Sequence record: PV660463
DNA length: 64,000 bases
Origin: Escherichia phage LF82-41
Strand: one strand, 5' to 3'
The notes beneath the pieces were generated by a model that ran no database searches, was not told the origin of the DNA, and saw only the letters and a program-made list of their open reading frames with translations. Both the position numbers and the translations under genes were made by a program. Within the stretch, counting starts at the first letter, position 1. Every line of letters starts with the position of its first letter. Positions 5,016 through 37,189 of the stretch are shown piece after piece.

Positions 5016-6587
5016 ATGAAATTTAATATCTTAAGTTTGTTTGCTCCATGGGCAAAAATGGACGAACGTGATTACAAAGACCAAGAAAAAGAAAATTTAG
5101 AATCGATCACCACACCAAAATTAGACGACGGCGCTAAAGAATACGAAGTATCTGAAAATGAAGCACAGCAAACATATAATGCTATGTTTCAGAGAATGTT
5201 CGGTAGCCAAGAACCAGGGCTCAAATCAACGCGTGAATTAATCGATACGTATCGAAATTTGATGACGAACTATGAAGTGGATAATGCAGTCTCTGAAATA
5301 GTTTCGGATGCTATCGTATATGAAGATGATACAGAAGTCGTTTCTATAAATTTAGACAACACAAAATTTAGTCCAAATATCAAATCAATGATGTTGGATG
5401 AATTTAACGAAGTGTTAAATCATTTATCTTTCCAACGTAAAGGTTCAGACCATTTTAGACGTTGGTACGTAGATTCTCGAATTTTCTTCCATAAAATTAT
5501 TGACCCTAAACGCCCTAAAGAAGGTATTAAAGAGCTTCGTCGTTTAGACCCACGTCAAGTTCAATATGTCCGTGAAGTTATTACAACCACTGAAGCTGGT
5601 GTTAAAATAGTCAAGGGTTATAAAGAATATTTCATTTATGACACATCACACGAATCTTATGCTTGTGATGGTCGCATATATGAAGCTGGCACAAAAATAA
5701 AAATCCCTAAAGCCGCGATTGTTTATGCCCATTCTGGTTTAGTTGATTGTTGTGGTAAAAATATCATTGGTTATTTGCATCGGGCTATTAAGCCGGCGAA
5801 CCAATTAAAACTTCTTGAAGATGCCGTCGTAATTTATCGTATTACTCGTGCTCCCGATCGTCGTGTATGGTACGTTGATACAGGTAATATGCCTTCAAGA
5901 AAAGCAGCAGAACATATGCAACATGTTATGAATACGATGAAAAACCGTATTGCATATGATGCTACTACAGGCAAGATTAAAAACCAGCAGCATATTATGT
6001 CGATGACCGAAGATTATTGGTTACAACGACGTGATGGTAAAGCAGTAACAGAAGTTGATACATTACCAGGTGCAGATAATACCGGAAATATGGAAGATGT
6101 ACGTTGGTTCCGTAATGCGCTTTATATGGCTTTACGTATTCCTATTACCCGTATTCCAAGCGACCAAGGTGGTATACAGTTTGATGCTGGTACTTCTATT
6201 ACACGAGATGAATTGTCATTTGGTAAATTTATTCGTGAGCTGCAACATAAATTTGAAGAGATATTCCTAGACCCGCTTAAAACTAATTTAATTCTTAAAG
6301 GAATTATTACAGAAGATGAGTGGAATGATGAAATAAATAATATTAAGATAAAATTTCATCGGGATAGTTATTTCTCGGAATTAAAGGATGCTGAGATTCT
6401 GGAGCGTCGTATTAATATGCTTCAGATGGCCGAACCATTTATTGGTAAATATATTTCTCACAGAACAGCTATGAAAGATATTCTTCAGATGTCTGACGAG
6501 GAAATTGAACAAGAGGCTAAGCAAATTGAAGAAGAGTCGAAAGAGGCTCGTTTCCAAGACCCCGACCAAGAACAAGAGGATTTTTAA
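5016..6587 (+). CDS. 20: portal vertex protein (gp20-like)
   Basis: 523 aa; T4 gp20-like length and position; late promoter upstream. Confidence 0.9.
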
Positions 6588-6823
6588 TGGACGATTTAAT
6601 TCAAGCTATTAAATCAAACGACCTCGTTGCTACTCGAAAGTTTTTTGAAAGTGCAATGGCAGAAAAAGCGGTTCGTTTGATTGAAGCGCGTAAAGCAGAA
6701 ATCGCTTCTCAATTTTTGATTGAAGGCGAAGAACCTGAAGAAGAAAAGAAAGCTAAAGCTTCGGAAGACGACGCTGATGAAGGCGATGACGACGAAGACG
6801 ATGATGATGAGGACGATGAATAA
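6587..6823 (+). CDS. 67: prohead core protein (gp67-like)
   Basis: 78 aa with poly-acidic C-terminus; position between 20 and 68. Confidence 0.8.
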
Positions 6824-26407: not shown

Positions 26408-26414
26408 GAAAAAA

Positions 26415-26431
26415 GGGAGACGTTGTCTCCC
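26415..26431. terminator. bidirectional terminator between gene 54 and alt.-1
   Basis: GGGAGAC-gtt-GTCTCCC followed by TTTAGGGGTTTATTT. Confidence 0.6.
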
Positions 26432-26440
26432 TTTAGGGGT

Positions 26441-26734
26441 TTATTTACGGAATGAAAGGAATGCTGGTGCTCGGAACGGAGTATCATCTTTAGAGTATTT
26501 AACTAATACGACCATTGGTACCTCTGTTTCTAAATGACCTGTCAGTACACCGATAAAAATTTGATCAGTGTGTTCAGGGTCACGAAAGTTTTTAAGAGGT
26601 TCCATAGCAATATGGAATGCACCTGGGAATACTCGATTCAATTCGTCAATCACAGCTTCGTTAAAAACATCATCCGCTGGGATAGCATCTTCAACTACTA
26701 GTTCTTGACCATTAAAGCGAAGCATAGATTTCAT
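26441..26734 (-). CDS. hypothetical protein (alt.-1 position), 97 aa
   Basis: ATG at 26734 with GAGGAA RBS downstream of an early promoter; track start 26806 is TTG inside the promoter. Confidence 0.5.
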   Translation of the reverse strand: MKSMLRFNGQELVVEDAIPADDVFNEAVIDELNRVFPGAFHIAMEPLKNFRDPEHTDQIFIGVLTGHLETEVPMVVLVKYSKDDTPFRAPAFLSFRK

Positions 26735-26763
26735 AACGTTTTCCTCATGTTGTTGATGGGATG

Positions 26764-26793
26764 ATAGTATCACACATCCATGTGCTTGTAAAC
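26764..26793 (-). promoter_or_regulatory. early promoter GTTTAC-N18-TACTAT between alt and alt.-1
   Basis: Same architecture and conserved leader as other cassette copies. Confidence 0.55.
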
Positions 26794-28880
26794 TATCCTT
26801 GAACAAATTTAAACGGAACCGATTCCAAATCCATTAAAGATGCTAACAGTTTCAATCCTTTAGGAGCACTAGTTTTTTCTACAAATGAGGAGAACGATAC
26901 CGGCTCATCTGATTCGATTTCACCCGTCATAGCAACCACCTCGCCTGTTTCCATGAGAACATCACCATCGTAAATGACAGCTTCATCCAACTGGTCTGAG
27001 GACATGACTTCAGCTTGAATAAATTTAAGGTTGGATTCTAAACCTGCACCAGTGTCAGATGACGCATCTGTAATTTTATTTATCTGCAAGAGAATGCCTC
27101 TAGGCAAAATAATTTCTTGCTCATTAGGGTGATTACTCAACTGTCCTGGATAAATCACGTTAACTTTATGGGCGCCATCAATAGCCCATCCAACGTTAAC
27201 ACGGATTTGTTCTGGTGCATGCATAGCTGTTCTTACTTGACTAGGAGAAATAGTAACACCTTCGTCATTATTGTCAATGTTAAGCTCTTTGCGAACTTCT
27301 TCAGGAGCAAGTCCAAGGGCAACGTTCTCTTTAAACCCACCGAAAATAATAGGAGCTAGTGAAGTGGAAACATAGTTTCTGAAGTAGAATACCTTATTTT
27401 TAACCATTGCTTCGTAAATAGGCATTCTGATAGACTGAGCTCTATATAACGTTAGTCCTTCAGGTAAACGGTCTCCATTTAAAAACGCCGAATCAAGACC
27501 ATCAATAGCGCGTTTAACTTCATCTTCATCTGCAACATCGTAAAAATCTGGTTTATAACGACCTAACAACATATTATTGATATCGGTATACGCAGAAGAG
27601 GCATATTCACGAATAGCTCGTTTTTCAGCAACAGAGTATTGTTTAGGGTCCCGATTCATTGTTATATTAAAGGTGCCTCTAGCCGATTCTCGGGCATAAG
27701 TATACATCACATTAGACAAGAACGCTGATTTACGTTGTTTCCAAGTTCTTTCAGATACTTCAGCTAAAACGTCGTCAGGCAGTTGGAAATTATCACGTCT
27801 AAAATCTTCAAACCATTCGTCTCTAATAGAGTCTGCAATTTCGTTTGCAGCTTCAACAAAAGCGGCTAATGCTTTAACAGATGTTGTTTTTTCAGTTTTA
27901 ATTTTCTTAGCAAACTTTTCTAAAGTCGGCTTAATAACACTACCATAAGAAACTTCATCAGCAAATTTAAAGGATTCATCAATACGATTATAAATCTTAT
28001 TTTCGATATCAGCAACTAAAGTGCCTTTTGCTGTGGACGATGCTTGGGCTAGTACAATTTCATATGCTTCAGGAAGTAATTCGGCTGTAGCTGGGCCACT
28101 AACTTCTTTAGCAGAATTTTCGTATTTCTGGAATAACTCACCTTCTTGTCGGTCAGCTTCTAAAGATTGGCTTGCTGCAATAGCACGACGAGAAATTTTA
28201 GTACGAGCAATAACAGGCTTATCTTTACGTTTTTCTTCTACAGCAGCAATAGAACCAGCGATAGCCGTTTCTTTGGTGACCTTTTCACCAGTCTTTTTAC
28301 TCACATAAACTTCGCCAACATCAGAATCTACTTTCGTGTACAACTCTGTGTTAATGTTAGGGATGCCTTTAATATCTTCAATGTTGGCATTTTTACGAAC
28401 CATCATCACATAGGTGTGTTTACCTGTGAATTGATACATTGCCGACAATACTTTAAAACGACCACCAGTTTTAGTAGAAACTAAACGAGCAAGAAGAGTT
28501 TGAAGTTGTTGTCCACGTCCTTTCAATTTCTTGGTAGGGAATCGGAACAGAACTGCATCCATACGAAGAGCTTTAACCTGTTCATACACTGTATTGAAAA
28601 TGGTGTTGATTGCATCAATAGGAGCAGGACCAAGGCCATTTTTCAATTCAGCGAGATTACCCTTTTCAGACAGACTCATAATAACGACATGAGCGTATTT
28701 GTCACCAAGTTTAACTTGTTTTACAGCATCGCCTTCGGAAAGGTAAGAGAATAAACGAACTACGATGTTTGTATCGATATCACCAATTTTCCAGACTTGT
28801 GGAACTTTAGCTTTAGGGTTCAAATTGACGACAGGAAGACTGCCTTCAGATTCAAACACTTCATTTAATTGTTCAGACAT
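26793..28880 (-). CDS. alt: Alt ADP-ribosyltransferase
   Basis: 695 aa; T4 Alt-like size and position between 54 and 30. Confidence 0.85.
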   Translation of the reverse strand: MSEQLNEVFESEGSLPVVNLNPKAKVPQVWKIGDIDTNIVVRLFSYLSEGDAVKQVKLGDKYAHVVIMSLSEKGNLAELKNGLGPAPIDAINTIFNTVYEQVKALRMDAVLFRFPTKKLKGRGQQLQTLLARLVSTKTGGRFKVLSAMYQFTGKHTYVMMVRKNANIEDIKGIPNINTELYTKVDSDVGEVYVSKKTGEKVTKETAIAGSIAAVEEKRKDKPVIARTKISRRAIAASQSLEADRQEGELFQKYENSAKEVSGPATAELLPEAYEIVLAQASSTAKGTLVADIENKIYNRIDESFKFADEVSYGSVIKPTLEKFAKKIKTEKTTSVKALAAFVEAANEIADSIRDEWFEDFRRDNFQLPDDVLAEVSERTWKQRKSAFLSNVMYTYARESARGTFNITMNRDPKQYSVAEKRAIREYASSAYTDINNMLLGRYKPDFYDVADEDEVKRAIDGLDSAFLNGDRLPEGLTLYRAQSIRMPIYEAMVKNKVFYFRNYVSTSLAPIIFGGFKENVALGLAPEEVRKELNIDNNDEGVTISPSQVRTAMHAPEQIRVNVGWAIDGAHKVNVIYPGQLSNHPNEQEIILPRGILLQINKITDASSDTGAGLESNLKFIQAEVMSSDQLDEAVIYDGDVLMETGEVVAMTGEIESDEPVSFSSFVEKTSAPKGLKLLASLMDLESVPFKFVQG

Positions 28881-28900: not shown

Positions 28901-28908
28901 AATTTATA
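28901..28908 (-). promoter_or_regulatory. late-promoter-like variant TATAAATT upstream of alt
   Basis: 7/8 match to TATAAATA, 20 nt upstream of alt ATG. Confidence 0.3.
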
Positions 28909-28920
28909 TTTATGCCAAAA

Positions 28921-30892: not shown

Positions 30893-31717
30893 TTAACAAT
30901 TTATAGACCAAGTCCATTTAGACGAATCTAAAGGAAAGTTTTGAATCGTCCACCACGGCTGCATATCAGTTGGTCCTGGGGTTCGCCAGGTATATGGAGT
31001 ACGTGTTGTCGAGGGGCCACCAATTTGATTAGGCCATGCACCTGGACTTGTTGCACCAGATTCTTTAAGCAAATCCGCCAATCGTTTTAAAAGGTCTTCA
31101 CGATCTGAATCTGAATTATTCTTAGGCAGAACCAAACGAGATTCAATATCATCCCACGTGTGTACACGTTGTGCAGTGCGAGGAATATCATCACGTTCAC
31201 CACGAGCCATCCAATAAATCGGTACATTAAGAATTTCTGCCGCATGGTCACAGTGATGAGCTAAATCGTCAACGTAACAAATCACGTTGTATTTTGTTTT
31301 AGCTAGTTCGAATAATTGTTCCTTTGAAGAATCATGACCACACATCATTACTTCAGAGAAAGCGCCTGGGAACAAAGCATTCAAATTAAATTGTCTATTC
31401 AATCGAGCATCAATTGAATCACCTAGCGCCGTCACGGCTACAAAATTATAGTCTTCTTTTAGTTTATTGATAACTCGAAGAGCATCCGAATAAGGCGCTA
31501 AGTAACGAATAAAATCAGAGCTATTATATTTTTCTATTAATTGTTTACCGAGGTTATCATCGGTATTGAATAGTTTACCAGGAGAAATAAATTTTTCGTC
31601 CTGAATCATTTTTAAAATATGTTCTAATGGAAGATTATATTTTTGGGCAAAATAAGGAAGTCCAGATTGCCAACTTAAACATACACCATCAATATCAGTC
31701 AAAATAGTAGGCTTCAT
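30893..31717 (-). CDS. HAD-superfamily hydrolase-like protein (30.2 position)
   Basis: 274 aa; N-terminal DIDGV (HAD motif I-like) and later VDD motif; Trp/Pro-rich C-terminal tail. Confidence 0.65.
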   Translation of the reverse strand: MKPTILTDIDGVCLSWQSGLPYFAQKYNLPLEHILKMIQDEKFISPGKLFNTDDNLGKQLIEKYNSSDFIRYLAPYSDALRVINKLKEDYNFVAVTALGDSIDARLNRQFNLNALFPGAFSEVMMCGHDSSKEQLFELAKTKYNVICYVDDLAHHCDHAAEILNVPIYWMARGERDDIPRTAQRVHTWDDIESRLVLPKNNSDSDREDLLKRLADLLKESGATSPGAWPNQIGGPSTTRTPYTWRTPGPTDMQPWWTIQNFPLDSSKWTWSINC

Positions 31718-32181
31718 AAAGAGTCTCTTAATAGGTTTAACACATCAACAAATTCAGTTTCGGTTAGTATTGTATCATCTTTTGTTAGGTGGCTAGCCAT
31801 GCTGTGCTTCAAAATTTTTCCTTTAGAGGCTTGTAAGGCATCACGAAATCCCTTATTTTGGATCGCTGCTTCAAAATATGCATTTGTGTATAATTCTTTC
31901 CACGCTTCAGAGTATCTTGAAAATGGAACTCCTAACCAGAAGAGAGTCCCATGGTCCTGAGCTCTTGCATAAGACCTTCCAGCTTGCTGTGCGGCCAGTC
32001 CTGACAGCCCAAATATACGTCTTTGTTGTTCAACATTTTTCACCTTACATCCTTGGAGAAATCCTTCAAGACCTCCGAATTGAATACCATCCATAACGAA
32101 AGGCCACTGGGCAAAATTACTTAATGCACATGACGGCCATCTAAAATTGCTTCTAATCTCTAACTCAGACATCTTTAACAC
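31714..32181 (-). CDS. NADAR/YbiA-like (DUF1768-like) protein (30.3 position)
   Basis: 155 aa; ALSNFAQWPFVMDG...EGFLQGCK resembles NADAR hallmark motifs (SNF, DG, E-x-[FY]-x-Q-x-x-K). Confidence 0.65.
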   Translation of the reverse strand: MLKMSELEIRSNFRWPSCALSNFAQWPFVMDGIQFGGLEGFLQGCKVKNVEQQRRIFGLSGLAAQQAGRSYARAQDHGTLFWLGVPFSRYSEAWKELYTNAYFEAAIQNKGFRDALQASKGKILKHSMASHLTKDDTILTETEFVDVLNLLRDSL

Positions 32182-32591: not shown

Positions 32592-32622
32592 ATTATACTC
32601 TAATCCGTCCTTGGATGTAAAC
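32592..32622 (-). promoter_or_regulatory. early-promoter-like GTTTAC-N19-TATAAT
   Basis: Perfect hexamers but 19-nt spacer; upstream of ORF 32370-32567. Confidence 0.35.
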
Positions 32623-33236
32623 TACTTAATGAAATTAATTTCTACCGGATGAACAACAGGTTGAGCAGTGATATATTGAGTAATTGCTTTCATGACTAGA
32701 GCTTCAGAGCCAGGATTTTTCTCAACGAATTCACGTGCTTGGTTATGAGCTTCAAGTTCACTTAGTAAACCACTTCGTTGACATCCACGGTCTTGAGTAC
32801 CCTGTTCAGATAAAAAGGCGACGATGTATTTTTCATCGTCATAAGGTTTAGGCAGTTGAGCAAATGTTCCTTTACTTCCAAAAGGAGAGTTATGACGCCA
32901 CATCACGCCGTGAGGAGTTTCAACCTTCGTATATTCGTGTGGGCCATTTTTCTTAGTTTCTTGATGTGGAACTTCGTAGACCTTAGGGTTAGGACATTCA
33001 ATAAAATGCTCATCTAAATCAGTCGAGAATATTAAAGTAAAACAATTACTGAATTTACCAACACCTGCCTGATAAATTTTACCTTCAGAAGTTCTAATTT
33101 CACAAACTGAGCCAGCATCAGTAACTTCTAAAACTTCAAAAGGCTCGATAAGGTCATATGAGAACATGTTTTTAAGGCGTGGAGTAATATCCCCATTTTT
33201 AAAATTCATTTTATAAAAAGTATTAACTTTAAACAT
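32622..33236 (-). CDS. hypothetical protein, 204 aa
   Basis: ORF-track ORF; ATG with GAGGA RBS. Confidence 0.6.
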   Translation of the reverse strand: MFKVNTFYKMNFKNGDITPRLKNMFSYDLIEPFEVLEVTDAGSVCEIRTSEGKIYQAGVGKFSNCFTLIFSTDLDEHFIECPNPKVYEVPHQETKKNGPHEYTKVETPHGVMWRHNSPFGSKGTFAQLPKPYDDEKYIVAFLSEQGTQDRGCQRSGLLSELEAHNQAREFVEKNPGSEALVMKAITQYITAQPVVHPVEINFIK

Positions 33237-35615: not shown

Positions 35616-36197
35616 TTATTCACCACAAAAGTTTCGGATTTGTTCCCAATTCAGAGAACGAAGATTATTACGAGAGTACTGAATTACTTCAATACCAGCT
35701 TGTTTAAGAATGTCTGCCCAGTTTTCAGGAGATCGGTCATATAATTCTGCATATACAACCTTTTTAATACCTGACTGCGTAATAGCTTTAGTACAATCAG
35801 GACATGGAGAAAGCGTCGTATATAACGTAGCACCTTCAATAGAATTACCTTTACGAGCGGCAAACAAAATTGCATTCAATTCTGCATGGATTTCATTATT
35901 AGCAGACCATGCACTATGAGCAGCTCGATGTTCTTTGGCTAAAACAAAATTATCTACCCGTCCAAATGCTGTAGTGCCTTCTTTATGTCCAGCAACGATG
36001 ACTGGGATTGGTTTATTCTTCAACCAACCATTTTCAGATGCATGTTCGCAACAGTTAACGCCACCTGCAGGTGAACCGTTATATCCAGTAGAAATAATGC
36101 GTCCATCTTTTTCAATGACGGCACCAACTTTCCATGAACAACATTTTGATTCTTGAGAAATCAGATATGCAATCTGAAGGTATGTGCTAGCTTTCAT
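35616..36197 (-). CDS. cd: dCMP deaminase
   Basis: 193 aa; zinc-binding HAE and PCxxC motifs; T4 Cd-like. Confidence 0.9.
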   Translation of the reverse strand: MKASTYLQIAYLISQESKCCSWKVGAVIEKDGRIISTGYNGSPAGGVNCCEHASENGWLKNKPIPVIVAGHKEGTTAFGRVDNFVLAKEHRAAHSAWSANNEIHAELNAILFAARKGNSIEGATLYTTLSPCPDCTKAITQSGIKKVVYAELYDRSPENWADILKQAGIEVIQYSRNNLRSLNWEQIRNFCGE

Positions 36198-37189
36198 TAT
36201 TGAACCTTATTAATATAAGTTAACAGCTCTTTAGTTTGTTCCCAACTGATGCACGCATCGGTAACGGAAACGCCATAGGACATATTATCAGAAATTTTTT
36301 GATTTCCTTCATGTAGGAACGATTCTATCATAATTCCTTTGACCAAATCATTAGCTGCTAAATTTTTACCAATACCAATTTGATTGCTATAATGCCCATC
36401 AGCGTTTGCATGGCTACAGTCAACCATTACATAATGATTCAGACCTACTGCCCTTGCTTTGTTAGAAGCTTCTTGAATATCAGAAGAATGATAGTTCGGG
36501 CCGTTGGTCCCGCCACGCAATACGATATGCGTATTCTGATTACCTTCAGCTTCAACAATGCCTACAGTACCATCGACGTCCATACCCATATACCGATGAG
36601 GCCAGGCGGCACTATACATCGCGTCTGTAGCTACTTTAATAGAACCATTGGTTGCGTTCTTGAAGCCTACGCACATCGGTAGACCTGAAGCAATTTCACG
36701 ATGTGTCTGACTTTCAGTCGTACGGGCGCCAATAGCAACCCATGAGAAAATACCAGAAAGATACTTAATCGTGAATGGGTCTAATACTTCAGTTGCTAAT
36801 GGAAGTCCCATACGTAGAAGTTTACGACACAATGTTCGTGCAACTATAAGACCGTGGTTCATATCAAAACTTCCGTCAAGATATGGATCATTTACAAGAC
36901 CTTTCCAACCTACGGTAGTTCGAGGCTTTTCAAAATAAACGCGCATCACTAACAGAACATTAGGAAGACGAGTTTGAAGTTCAGCCAGACGTTTGCCGTA
37001 TTCAACAGCAGCAATAGGGTCATGAATTGAACAAGGACCTACAACAATAAGTTTGCGTGGGTCTTCACCGTTCATAATCGAATTAACTTGTTCGCGATGA
37101 GAAGCCACTTGTGATGCGTAAGCTTCCGACAAAGGAATAATCTCAGCCAGTTCTTTTGGAGAAATAAGTTTTCCGACGACAGGTAACAT
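36197..37189 (-). CDS. 3-deoxy-D-arabino-heptulosonate-7-phosphate (DAHP) synthase, type I (AroG/F/H-like)
   Basis: 330 aa; motifs GPCSIHD, MRVYFEKPRTTVGWKGL, IGARTTESQ, ILRGG, CSHANA, IESFLHEGNQ, TDACI; stop overlaps cd start; AAGGA RBS. Confidence 0.9.
   Translation of the reverse strand: MLPVVGKLISPKELAEIIPLSEAYASQVASHREQVNSIMNGEDPRKLIVVGPCSIHDPIAAVEYGKRLAELQTRLPNVLLVMRVYFEKPRTTVGWKGLVNDPYLDGSFDMNHGLIVARTLCRKLLRMGLPLATEVLDPFTIKYLSGIFSWVAIGARTTESQTHREIASGLPMCVGFKNATNGSIKVATDAMYSAAWPHRYMGMDVDGTVGIVEAEGNQNTHIVLRGGTNGPNYHSSDIQEASNKARAVGLNHYVMVDCSHANADGHYSNQIGIGKNLAANDLVKGIMIESFLHEGNQKISDNMSYGVSVTDACISWEQTKELLTYINKVQ

Follow-up and report, generated by a model that had tools for sequence, protein, structure and literature searches.

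The gene at 31714-32172 on the minus strand of the window (i.e. the whole 64,000-nucleotide stretch of Escherichia phage LF82-41 DNA that was analysed, record PV660463) belongs to a Tequatrovirus-type genome and is, with a probability of about 0.93, orthologous to T4 gene 30.3 (adfN), encoding an anti-DarTG1 ADP-ribosylglycohydrolase. It is an ordinary orthologue of an already characterised gene, and the gene is not new; the family assignment was in print by 2023, and papers of 2024 and 2025 added the biochemistry and the biological role, respectively. The initial annotation of this DNA had read the open reading frame as NADAR/YbiA-like and had raised, as speculation, a role in countering host ADP-ribosylating toxins of the DarTG type. 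The first reading is borne out by a fold search, a profile match to YbiA, cross-matches to the NADAR family PF08719 and the literature on the T4 orthologue. The second is correct, and had already been published for AdfN, the 95%-identical T4 orthologue.

Table 1. Positions of adfN, its neighbours and the sequence features discussed in the text.
Feature	Coordinates	Strand	Evidence or comment
alt, Alt ADP-ribosyltransferase, 695 aa	26793..28880	minus	PF03496, E = 6.6e-28; T4 annotation
Late-promoter-like CATAAATATAAATT, 20 nt upstream of alt ATG	28901..28914	minus	7/8 match
Terminator-like hairpin and T-run between alt.1 and alt, 7 bp, UUCG loop	28917..28937	minus	
alt.1 homologue, 62 aa	28936..29124	minus	PF24647 'Phage blade protein', E = 6.3e-30; start overlaps ligase stop
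30.2 homologue, 274 aa, HAD-like N-terminal domain	30893..31717	minus	phrog_420, E = 4.7e-79; weak HAD_2 match
adfN / gene 30.3 CDS, 152 aa, phage-type NADAR ADP-ribosylglycohydrolase	31714..32172	minus	stop included
C-terminal helix, ~residues 138-152	31717..31761	minus	model helix 138-151; frame intact to 152 as in T4
His123, last-strand residue that defines phage NADARs	31804..31806	minus	invariant in 65 sequences
Motif EGFLQGCK, residues 36-43	32044..32067	minus	Glu36 32065-32067; Lys43 32044-32046
Motif ALSNFAQWPFVMDG, N-terminal NADAR core, residues 16-29	32086..32127	minus	
30.4 homologue, 71 aa	32165..32380	minus	phrog_2042, E = 1.1e-35; stop overlaps adfN start; T4 gene order
Three extra codons GTG-TTA-AAG in earlier ORF call	32173..32181	minus	probably outside gp30.3 translation
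Putative T4 early-type sigma-70 promoter: GTTTACA, 17-18 nt spacer, TATAAT	32592..32621	minus	11/12 match, the region's best

The reading frame ends at a TGA codon at 31714 and opens mechanically at a GTG at 32181, giving the 155 amino acids of the original call. The frame is real, and its start is probably further in. Translation most likely begins at the ATG at 32172 and not at the GTG, because the resulting 152 amino acids match the annotated length, with an ATG start, of both T4 30.3 and the orthologue in phage Mizar, and because the 30.4 homologue just upstream ends in a stop codon that shares bases with this ATG (ATGTCTGA). Around adfN, an 8-kb stretch matches Escherichia phage TH12 at 98% identity and many other T4-like phages of E. 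coli at 97-98%. The window is a T4-type (Tequatrovirus-like) genome segment that keeps the T4 gene order, i.e. gene 54, alt, gene 30, 30.1-30.9, rIII, 31 and cd, and LF82-41 shares with T4 the immediate neighbourhood 30.4, 30.3, 30.2, 30.1 and ligase.

The protein is 95% identical to T4 gp30.3 across all 152 residues, without gaps. The seven substitutions are R74H, P89E, V120I, I125M, G128H, A139T and I142V; three are near His123, and all seven lie outside the columns with 90% or more conservation in an alignment of 65 homologues. At the DNA level 41 of the 459 positions differ from T4, 29 of them at third codon positions, with pN/pS ~0.10. This pattern indicates purifying selection acting on adfN in its frame. 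Pfam family PF08010 (Phage_30_3) is matched over its full length (hmmscan, 230.5 bits, E = 6.5e-69, model positions 1-138 of 138) where the curated cut-off is 36 bits; PHROG 652 is also matched. Homologues are present in at least 1510 phage records by tblastn, with hosts that include Escherichia, Klebsiella, Aeromonas, Acinetobacter and Vibrio. From the PF08010 score, the number of tblastn records and the third-position bias with its low pN/pS we conclude that the frame has not arisen by chance.

Within T4 gene 30.3 an internal out-of-frame ORF, 30.3′, is annotated (75 aa; positions 6403-6630 of the T4 sequence L001). The same frame in LF82-41 (31932-32036, minus strand) stops after 34 codons, so that 30.3′ is not conserved and is probably not a genuine gene.

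Two checks had been proposed for the family assignment, a search for PF08719 and a comparison of the predicted structure with YbiA. With the single gp30.3 sequence, hmmscan against Pfam at E ≤ 1 gives PF08010 as the sole match and misses PF08719, and there is no match in NCBIfam or, by phmmer, among PDB sequences; the NADAR assignment therefore rests on profile, fold and literature. PF08719 is reached indirectly. It is matched by 24 of 65 diverse gp30.3 homologues (best E = 1.5e-7), the top PDB sequence for the family profile is E. coli YbiA (E = 0.017), and hhalign pairs the family alignment with YbiA at a probability of 92.5% (E = 4.7e-7) over residues 15-122. The missing direct match reflects divergence, and not exclusion from the NADAR superfamily. 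An AlphaFold2 model computed from the 65-homologue family alignment minus the T4 sequence (pLDDT 93.8, pTM 0.89) has the NADAR fold. Three NADARs are the only solved structures that it matches significantly, i.e. the Phytophthora NADAR with bound ADP-ribose (8bau, score 11.8), E. coli YbiA (2b3w, 11.5) and the DarG1-type NADAR of Geobacter lovleyi (8bat, 9.5). The next match, to an unrelated structure, scores 3.9.

Both of the core motifs quoted in the initial annotation are present in the minus-strand frame. The N-terminal motif ALSNFAQWPFVMDG aligns with YbiA FSNFAAWPIKVDG, and E36 and K43 of EGFLQGCK are aligned to E48 and K55 of YbiA. They have the E-x6-K spacing of E43/K50 in the Phytophthora NADAR and E88/K95 in the E. 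coli C7 NADAR, where the glutamate and lysine contact the ribose and phosphates (PMC11543638). Substitution of either residue by alanine (E36A or K43A) impairs T4 AdfN (PMC11825919). In the alignment of 65 diverse family members P13, A16, L17, S18, N19, F20, F25, E36, G37, F38, Q40, A61, A112, H123, L136 and T137 do not vary, and at least 90% of the sequences retain K43.

The third catalytic position, on the last strand, distinguishes the NADAR types, being Glu in the YbiA type, Asp in the DarG1 type and His in phage NADARs (PMC11125620, PMC11543638, PMC12945103). With reference to a previous bioinformatic study of the superfamily, Schuller et al. 2023 (PMC11543638) treat the phage NADARs as a group in which His replaces the YbiA Glu, and a 2024 paper in Toxins (PMC11125620) equates this group with the gp30.3 proteins. 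H123 of gp30.3 comes directly after the ILK/KLV segment aligned by hhalign and lies opposite YbiA E125. It is thus the phage-type histidine, and not the glutamate of YbiA and the Phytophthora NADAR; overall identity to YbiA (2b3w), to the Phytophthora NADAR (8bau) and to PF08719 is ~20%.

The C-terminal helix is intact. This element is required for full activity, and its loss explains the defective RB69 allele (PMC11825919). In some other T4-like phages (e.g. TOPO13, CM8 and KIT03) the gp30.3 match ends at residue 144 of 152. Such alleles could have an altered or shortened C-terminus, and by the RB69 precedent might leave the phage sensitive to DarTG1.

Johannesman et al. (Nat Commun 2025; PMC11825919) traced the ability of T-even phages to resist DarTG1 to gene 30.3, which they renamed adfN (anti-DarT factor NADAR). 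When adfN is deleted neither T4 nor T2 plates on DarTG1 hosts, and expression of the gene rescues RB69. Purified T4 AdfN strips ADP-ribose from DNA modified by DarT1, the E36A variant fails to do so, and there is no effect on the thymidine-targeting DarTG2. This work and the three studies that follow characterise T4 AdfN as a DNA ADP-ribosylglycohydrolase specific for guanine, both necessary and sufficient for overcoming DarTG1. Independent work in vitro showed that the T4 NADAR cleaves guanine-linked ADP-ribose (Toxins 2024, PMC11125620), as a later paper confirmed (Toxins 2026, PMC12945103). A transposon-sequencing preprint (HIDEN-SEQ; bioRxiv 10.1101/2025.11.20.689424) finds the gene dispensable on K-12 and essential on a DarTG1 host. 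The T4 and LF82-41 proteins share E36, K43, H123 and the C-terminal helix, as well as membership of PF08010, and from their 95% identity we infer that the LF82-41 allele acts as T4 AdfN does, hydrolysing guanine-linked ADP-ribose and conferring resistance to DarTG1. We note that the methods of the 2024 study (PMC11125620) give the T4 gp30.3 construct as 'residues 1-208', compared with a protein of 152 aa; this may be a typographical error or a tagged construct.

We propose the following mechanism. AdfN would be a minimal, 152-aa enzyme of NADAR fold in which ADP-ribose is held by its distal ribose and phosphates through Glu36 and Lys43, with His123 taking the third catalytic position. The gene is probably transcribed early, from the early-type promoter near 32600 and/or by read-through, as part of the packed block 30.5-30.4-30.3-30.2-30.1-30-alt.1. 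On infection of a DarTG1 host DarT1 would ADP-ribosylate guanine in the phage DNA, blocking replication; AdfN would then cut the guanine-ADP-ribose bond, restoring the DNA, so that the phage escapes abortive infection. The mechanism is incomplete. T4 AdfN has its full function only in T-even infections, implying a T-even co-factor (PMC11825919), and in uninfected E. coli it failed to protect against DarT1 (PMC11825919, PMC11125620).

The activity proposed for gp30.3 would be like that of DarG1, the NADAR antitoxin associated with DarT1 (E. coli C7; Geobacter lovleyi, 8bat), yet gp30.3 is not a member of the DarG1 group. DarG1 has an Asp on the last strand and an N-terminal extension, and is encoded beside DarT1. 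By contrast, gp30.3 has His123 and comprises the 152-aa core only, and it is an orphan, with 30.4 and 30.2 as neighbours and no adjacent ADP-ribosyltransferase gene. Nor does T4 AdfN replace DarG1 in uninfected cells. Other phage factors that neutralise DarTG defence differ from AdfN in other ways. AdfA (gp61.2) binds DarT1 and does not erase the mark, while AdfM (the tk.4 macrodomain) acts against the thymidine-targeting DarTG2. AdfN-Bas32 and AdfN-Bas60 belong to other NADAR clades and, unlike T4 AdfN, do not need the T-even factor.

The initial annotation identified alt correctly, and placed adfN in an early transcription unit ending with it. The minus-strand order is 30.5, 30.4, 30.3, 30.2, 30.1, 30 (ligase), alt.1, alt and alt.-3, so that four genes (30.2, 30.1, the DNA ligase gene and alt.1) lie between adfN and alt, which is 2.8 kb downstream on the same strand. 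The early promoter is the probable start of the unit that holds 30.5, 30.4 and adfN, and from there to alt.1 the stop and start codons of successive genes overlap or nearly abut. Between alt.1 and alt the RNA is predicted to fold into the hairpin AAGAGCC-UUCG-GGCUCUU, with a U-run behind it (-14.2 kcal/mol, z = -2.6). This element is absent from the output of the terminator scan, and was found by reading and folding the sequence; it is conserved in T4, aligning with the T4 hairpin GGCCTTCGGGCC. The late-promoter consensus of T4 is TATAAATA. An exact search upstream of alt on the minus strand found no copy of it, only 7/8 variants; one of these, CATAAATATAAATT, aligns with an exact TATAAATA at the same position in T4, and a late promoter for alt is likely on that account. 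Alt is a virion protein of the internal head, injected with the DNA (PMC2988021; T4 annotation), and must therefore be made late. The transcription timing rests on sequence features and a 2010 review (PMC2988021). The hairpin and the late-promoter-like element separate alt from the genes upstream, and co-transcription of adfN with alt is not supported, although some read-through could occur. Nor does the minus-strand block end at alt; it ends after the alt.-3 homologue, at a strong 10-bp hairpin terminator (26412-26434) located between alt.-3 and the convergent gene 54. The alt.-3 homologue (26441-26734) is 51% identical to that of T4, and is all that remains here of the T4 genes alt.-1 to alt.-3; 26412-26806 lacks alt.-1 and alt.-2, which in T4 form a partial duplication of alt.

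This arrangement bears on the suggestion that the phage balances its own ADP-ribosylation, i.e. that gp30.3 reverses or limits modification by Alt (or ModA/ModB) and is located near alt for that reason. The shared strand and the 2.8-kb distance would suit such a role, as would the retention in T4 of the order 30.3 ... 30 - alt.1 - alt, but the chemistry does not. Alt modifies arginine in protein, at Arg265 of the RNA polymerase alpha subunit (PMC2988021), whereas the phage NADARs tested act on guanine-linked ADP-ribose in DNA or RNA and not on the thymidine-linked form (PMC11825919, PMC11125620, PMC12945103), and they are not among the enzymes that reverse cytidine-linked ADP-ribose in the substrate table of the 2026 study (PMC12945103). 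Besides the four intervening genes, an injected virion protein with its own late-promoter-like element behind a hairpin would be expressed at a different time, and no ADP-ribosyltransferase family was detected among the neighbours of distant gp30.3-type NADARs. We rejected the pairing on substrate chemistry and expression timing, and consider it very improbable; the proximity of adfN to alt is best read as conserved T4 synteny and not as a writer-eraser pair. There is similarly little to recommend a YbiA-type role, in which gp30.3 would be a metabolic N-glycosidase for riboflavin-pathway intermediates or have some other small-molecule function outside defence. The glutamate that defines the YbiA family is replaced by a histidine invariant in 65 relatives, and the gp30.3 proteins are placed in a separate phage-NADAR family (PMC11125620, PMC11543638). 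The contexts also differ, YbiA being associated with a LexA operon and riboflavin intermediates and the Phytophthora NADAR being eukaryotic. Moreover T4 can do without the gene on K-12, and the phenotype of its loss clearly depends on DarTG1 (PMC11825919; bioRxiv 10.1101/2025.11.20.689424), so that we think a metabolic role highly unlikely.

A decaying or inactive allele, like the frameshift variant of RB69, has a precedent in the truncation of the RB69 protein by 15 residues (PMC11825919), and several gp30.3 entries in the databases are fragments. This is largely refuted for LF82-41 by the sequence, in which the allele is of full length, the C-terminal helix is intact, the catalytic residues are all present and purifying selection appears strong; the chance of an inactive allele is minimal. 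More room can be given to a broader eraser, which would also counter guanine-directed enzymes like pierisin/ScARP or YarT, or, in infected cells, clear RNA of guanine-linked ADP-ribose. Guanine modified by ScARP is a substrate of the T4 NADAR, which hydrolyses the linked ADP-ribose, and in vitro removal of this mark from RNA is reported for every NADAR family (both PMC11125620 and PMC12945103). The at least 1510 phage records span many hosts, and the family also occurs in jumbo-phage-like and integrase-bearing contigs. Against this, DarTG1 is the only demonstrated target, and we regard the broader activity as possible but rather unlikely. It would add to the anti-DarTG1 explanation and not replace it.

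With AdfN taken as an anti-DarTG1 glycohydrolase, its dependence on a T-even factor directs attention to the adjoining genes. The start of 30.2 overlaps the adfN stop (ATGA), and 30.2 homologues are found in 1438 phage records by tblastn. It is unlikely, if conceivable, that the factor comes from the coupled cassette (i.e. the HAD-like gp30.2 or the small gp30.4), making a two-component anti-ADP-ribosylation module; if so, the adfN locus would be such a module and not a single enzyme. An alternative explanation of the dependence is a preference of AdfN for DNA that contains glucosyl-hydroxymethylcytosine. Pairing of 30.2 with 30.3 beyond the T4-like phages was considered and dropped. No recognisable 30.2 was seen beside the NADAR at three distant gp30.3-type loci, and at one of these (L003) the gene adjoining the gp30.3 homologue has no similarity to 30.2 and no Pfam match.

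Family members at 35-45% identity are found further afield, in jumbo-phage-like contigs of ~300 kb with a NUDIX hydrolase and a Thg1-like gene nearby, and another is in an integrase-bearing contig; neither a 30.2-like nor an ADP-ribosyltransferase neighbour was found at these distant loci. They fit the published view that phages carry orphan NADARs. The L003 protein (L003 6001-6468; from a 308-kb ENA contig) is 38% identical to gp30.3, with the NUDIX hydrolase and Thg1-like genes ~2.6-4.8 kb downstream; this neighbourhood may be another cluster related to NAD or ADP-ribose.

Closely related phage records, including one in a 2025 release, still describe the adfN product as a 'hypothetical protein'. 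The annotation could be upgraded to 'AdfN, NADAR-family DNA ADP-ribosylglycohydrolase (anti-DarTG1)'. The intact gene predicts that LF82-41 will resist DarTG1-carrying hosts, which is relevant to the prediction of host range.

The LF82-41 locus differs from that of T4 in several respects besides the interruption of 30.3′. The gp30.2 protein is only ~70% identical to that in the T4 record (phage T4T), the variable part being the C-terminal ~80 residues, which are rich in Trp and Pro, while the adjoining adfN is at 95%; the 30.2/30.3 junction marks a probable boundary of a recombination mosaic. A 204-aa ORF (32622-33236, minus strand; phrog_17531, no Pfam match) replaces 30.6 at the T4 30.6 position and looks like a variable cargo gene, and the 54-nt gap after it holds a textbook T4 early promoter. 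Directly upstream of cd, at the position of T4 cd.1, is a 330-aa DAHP synthase (36197-37189, minus strand; PF00793, E = 5.2e-75), an auxiliary gene of the aromatic-amino-acid pathway in a T4-like phage.
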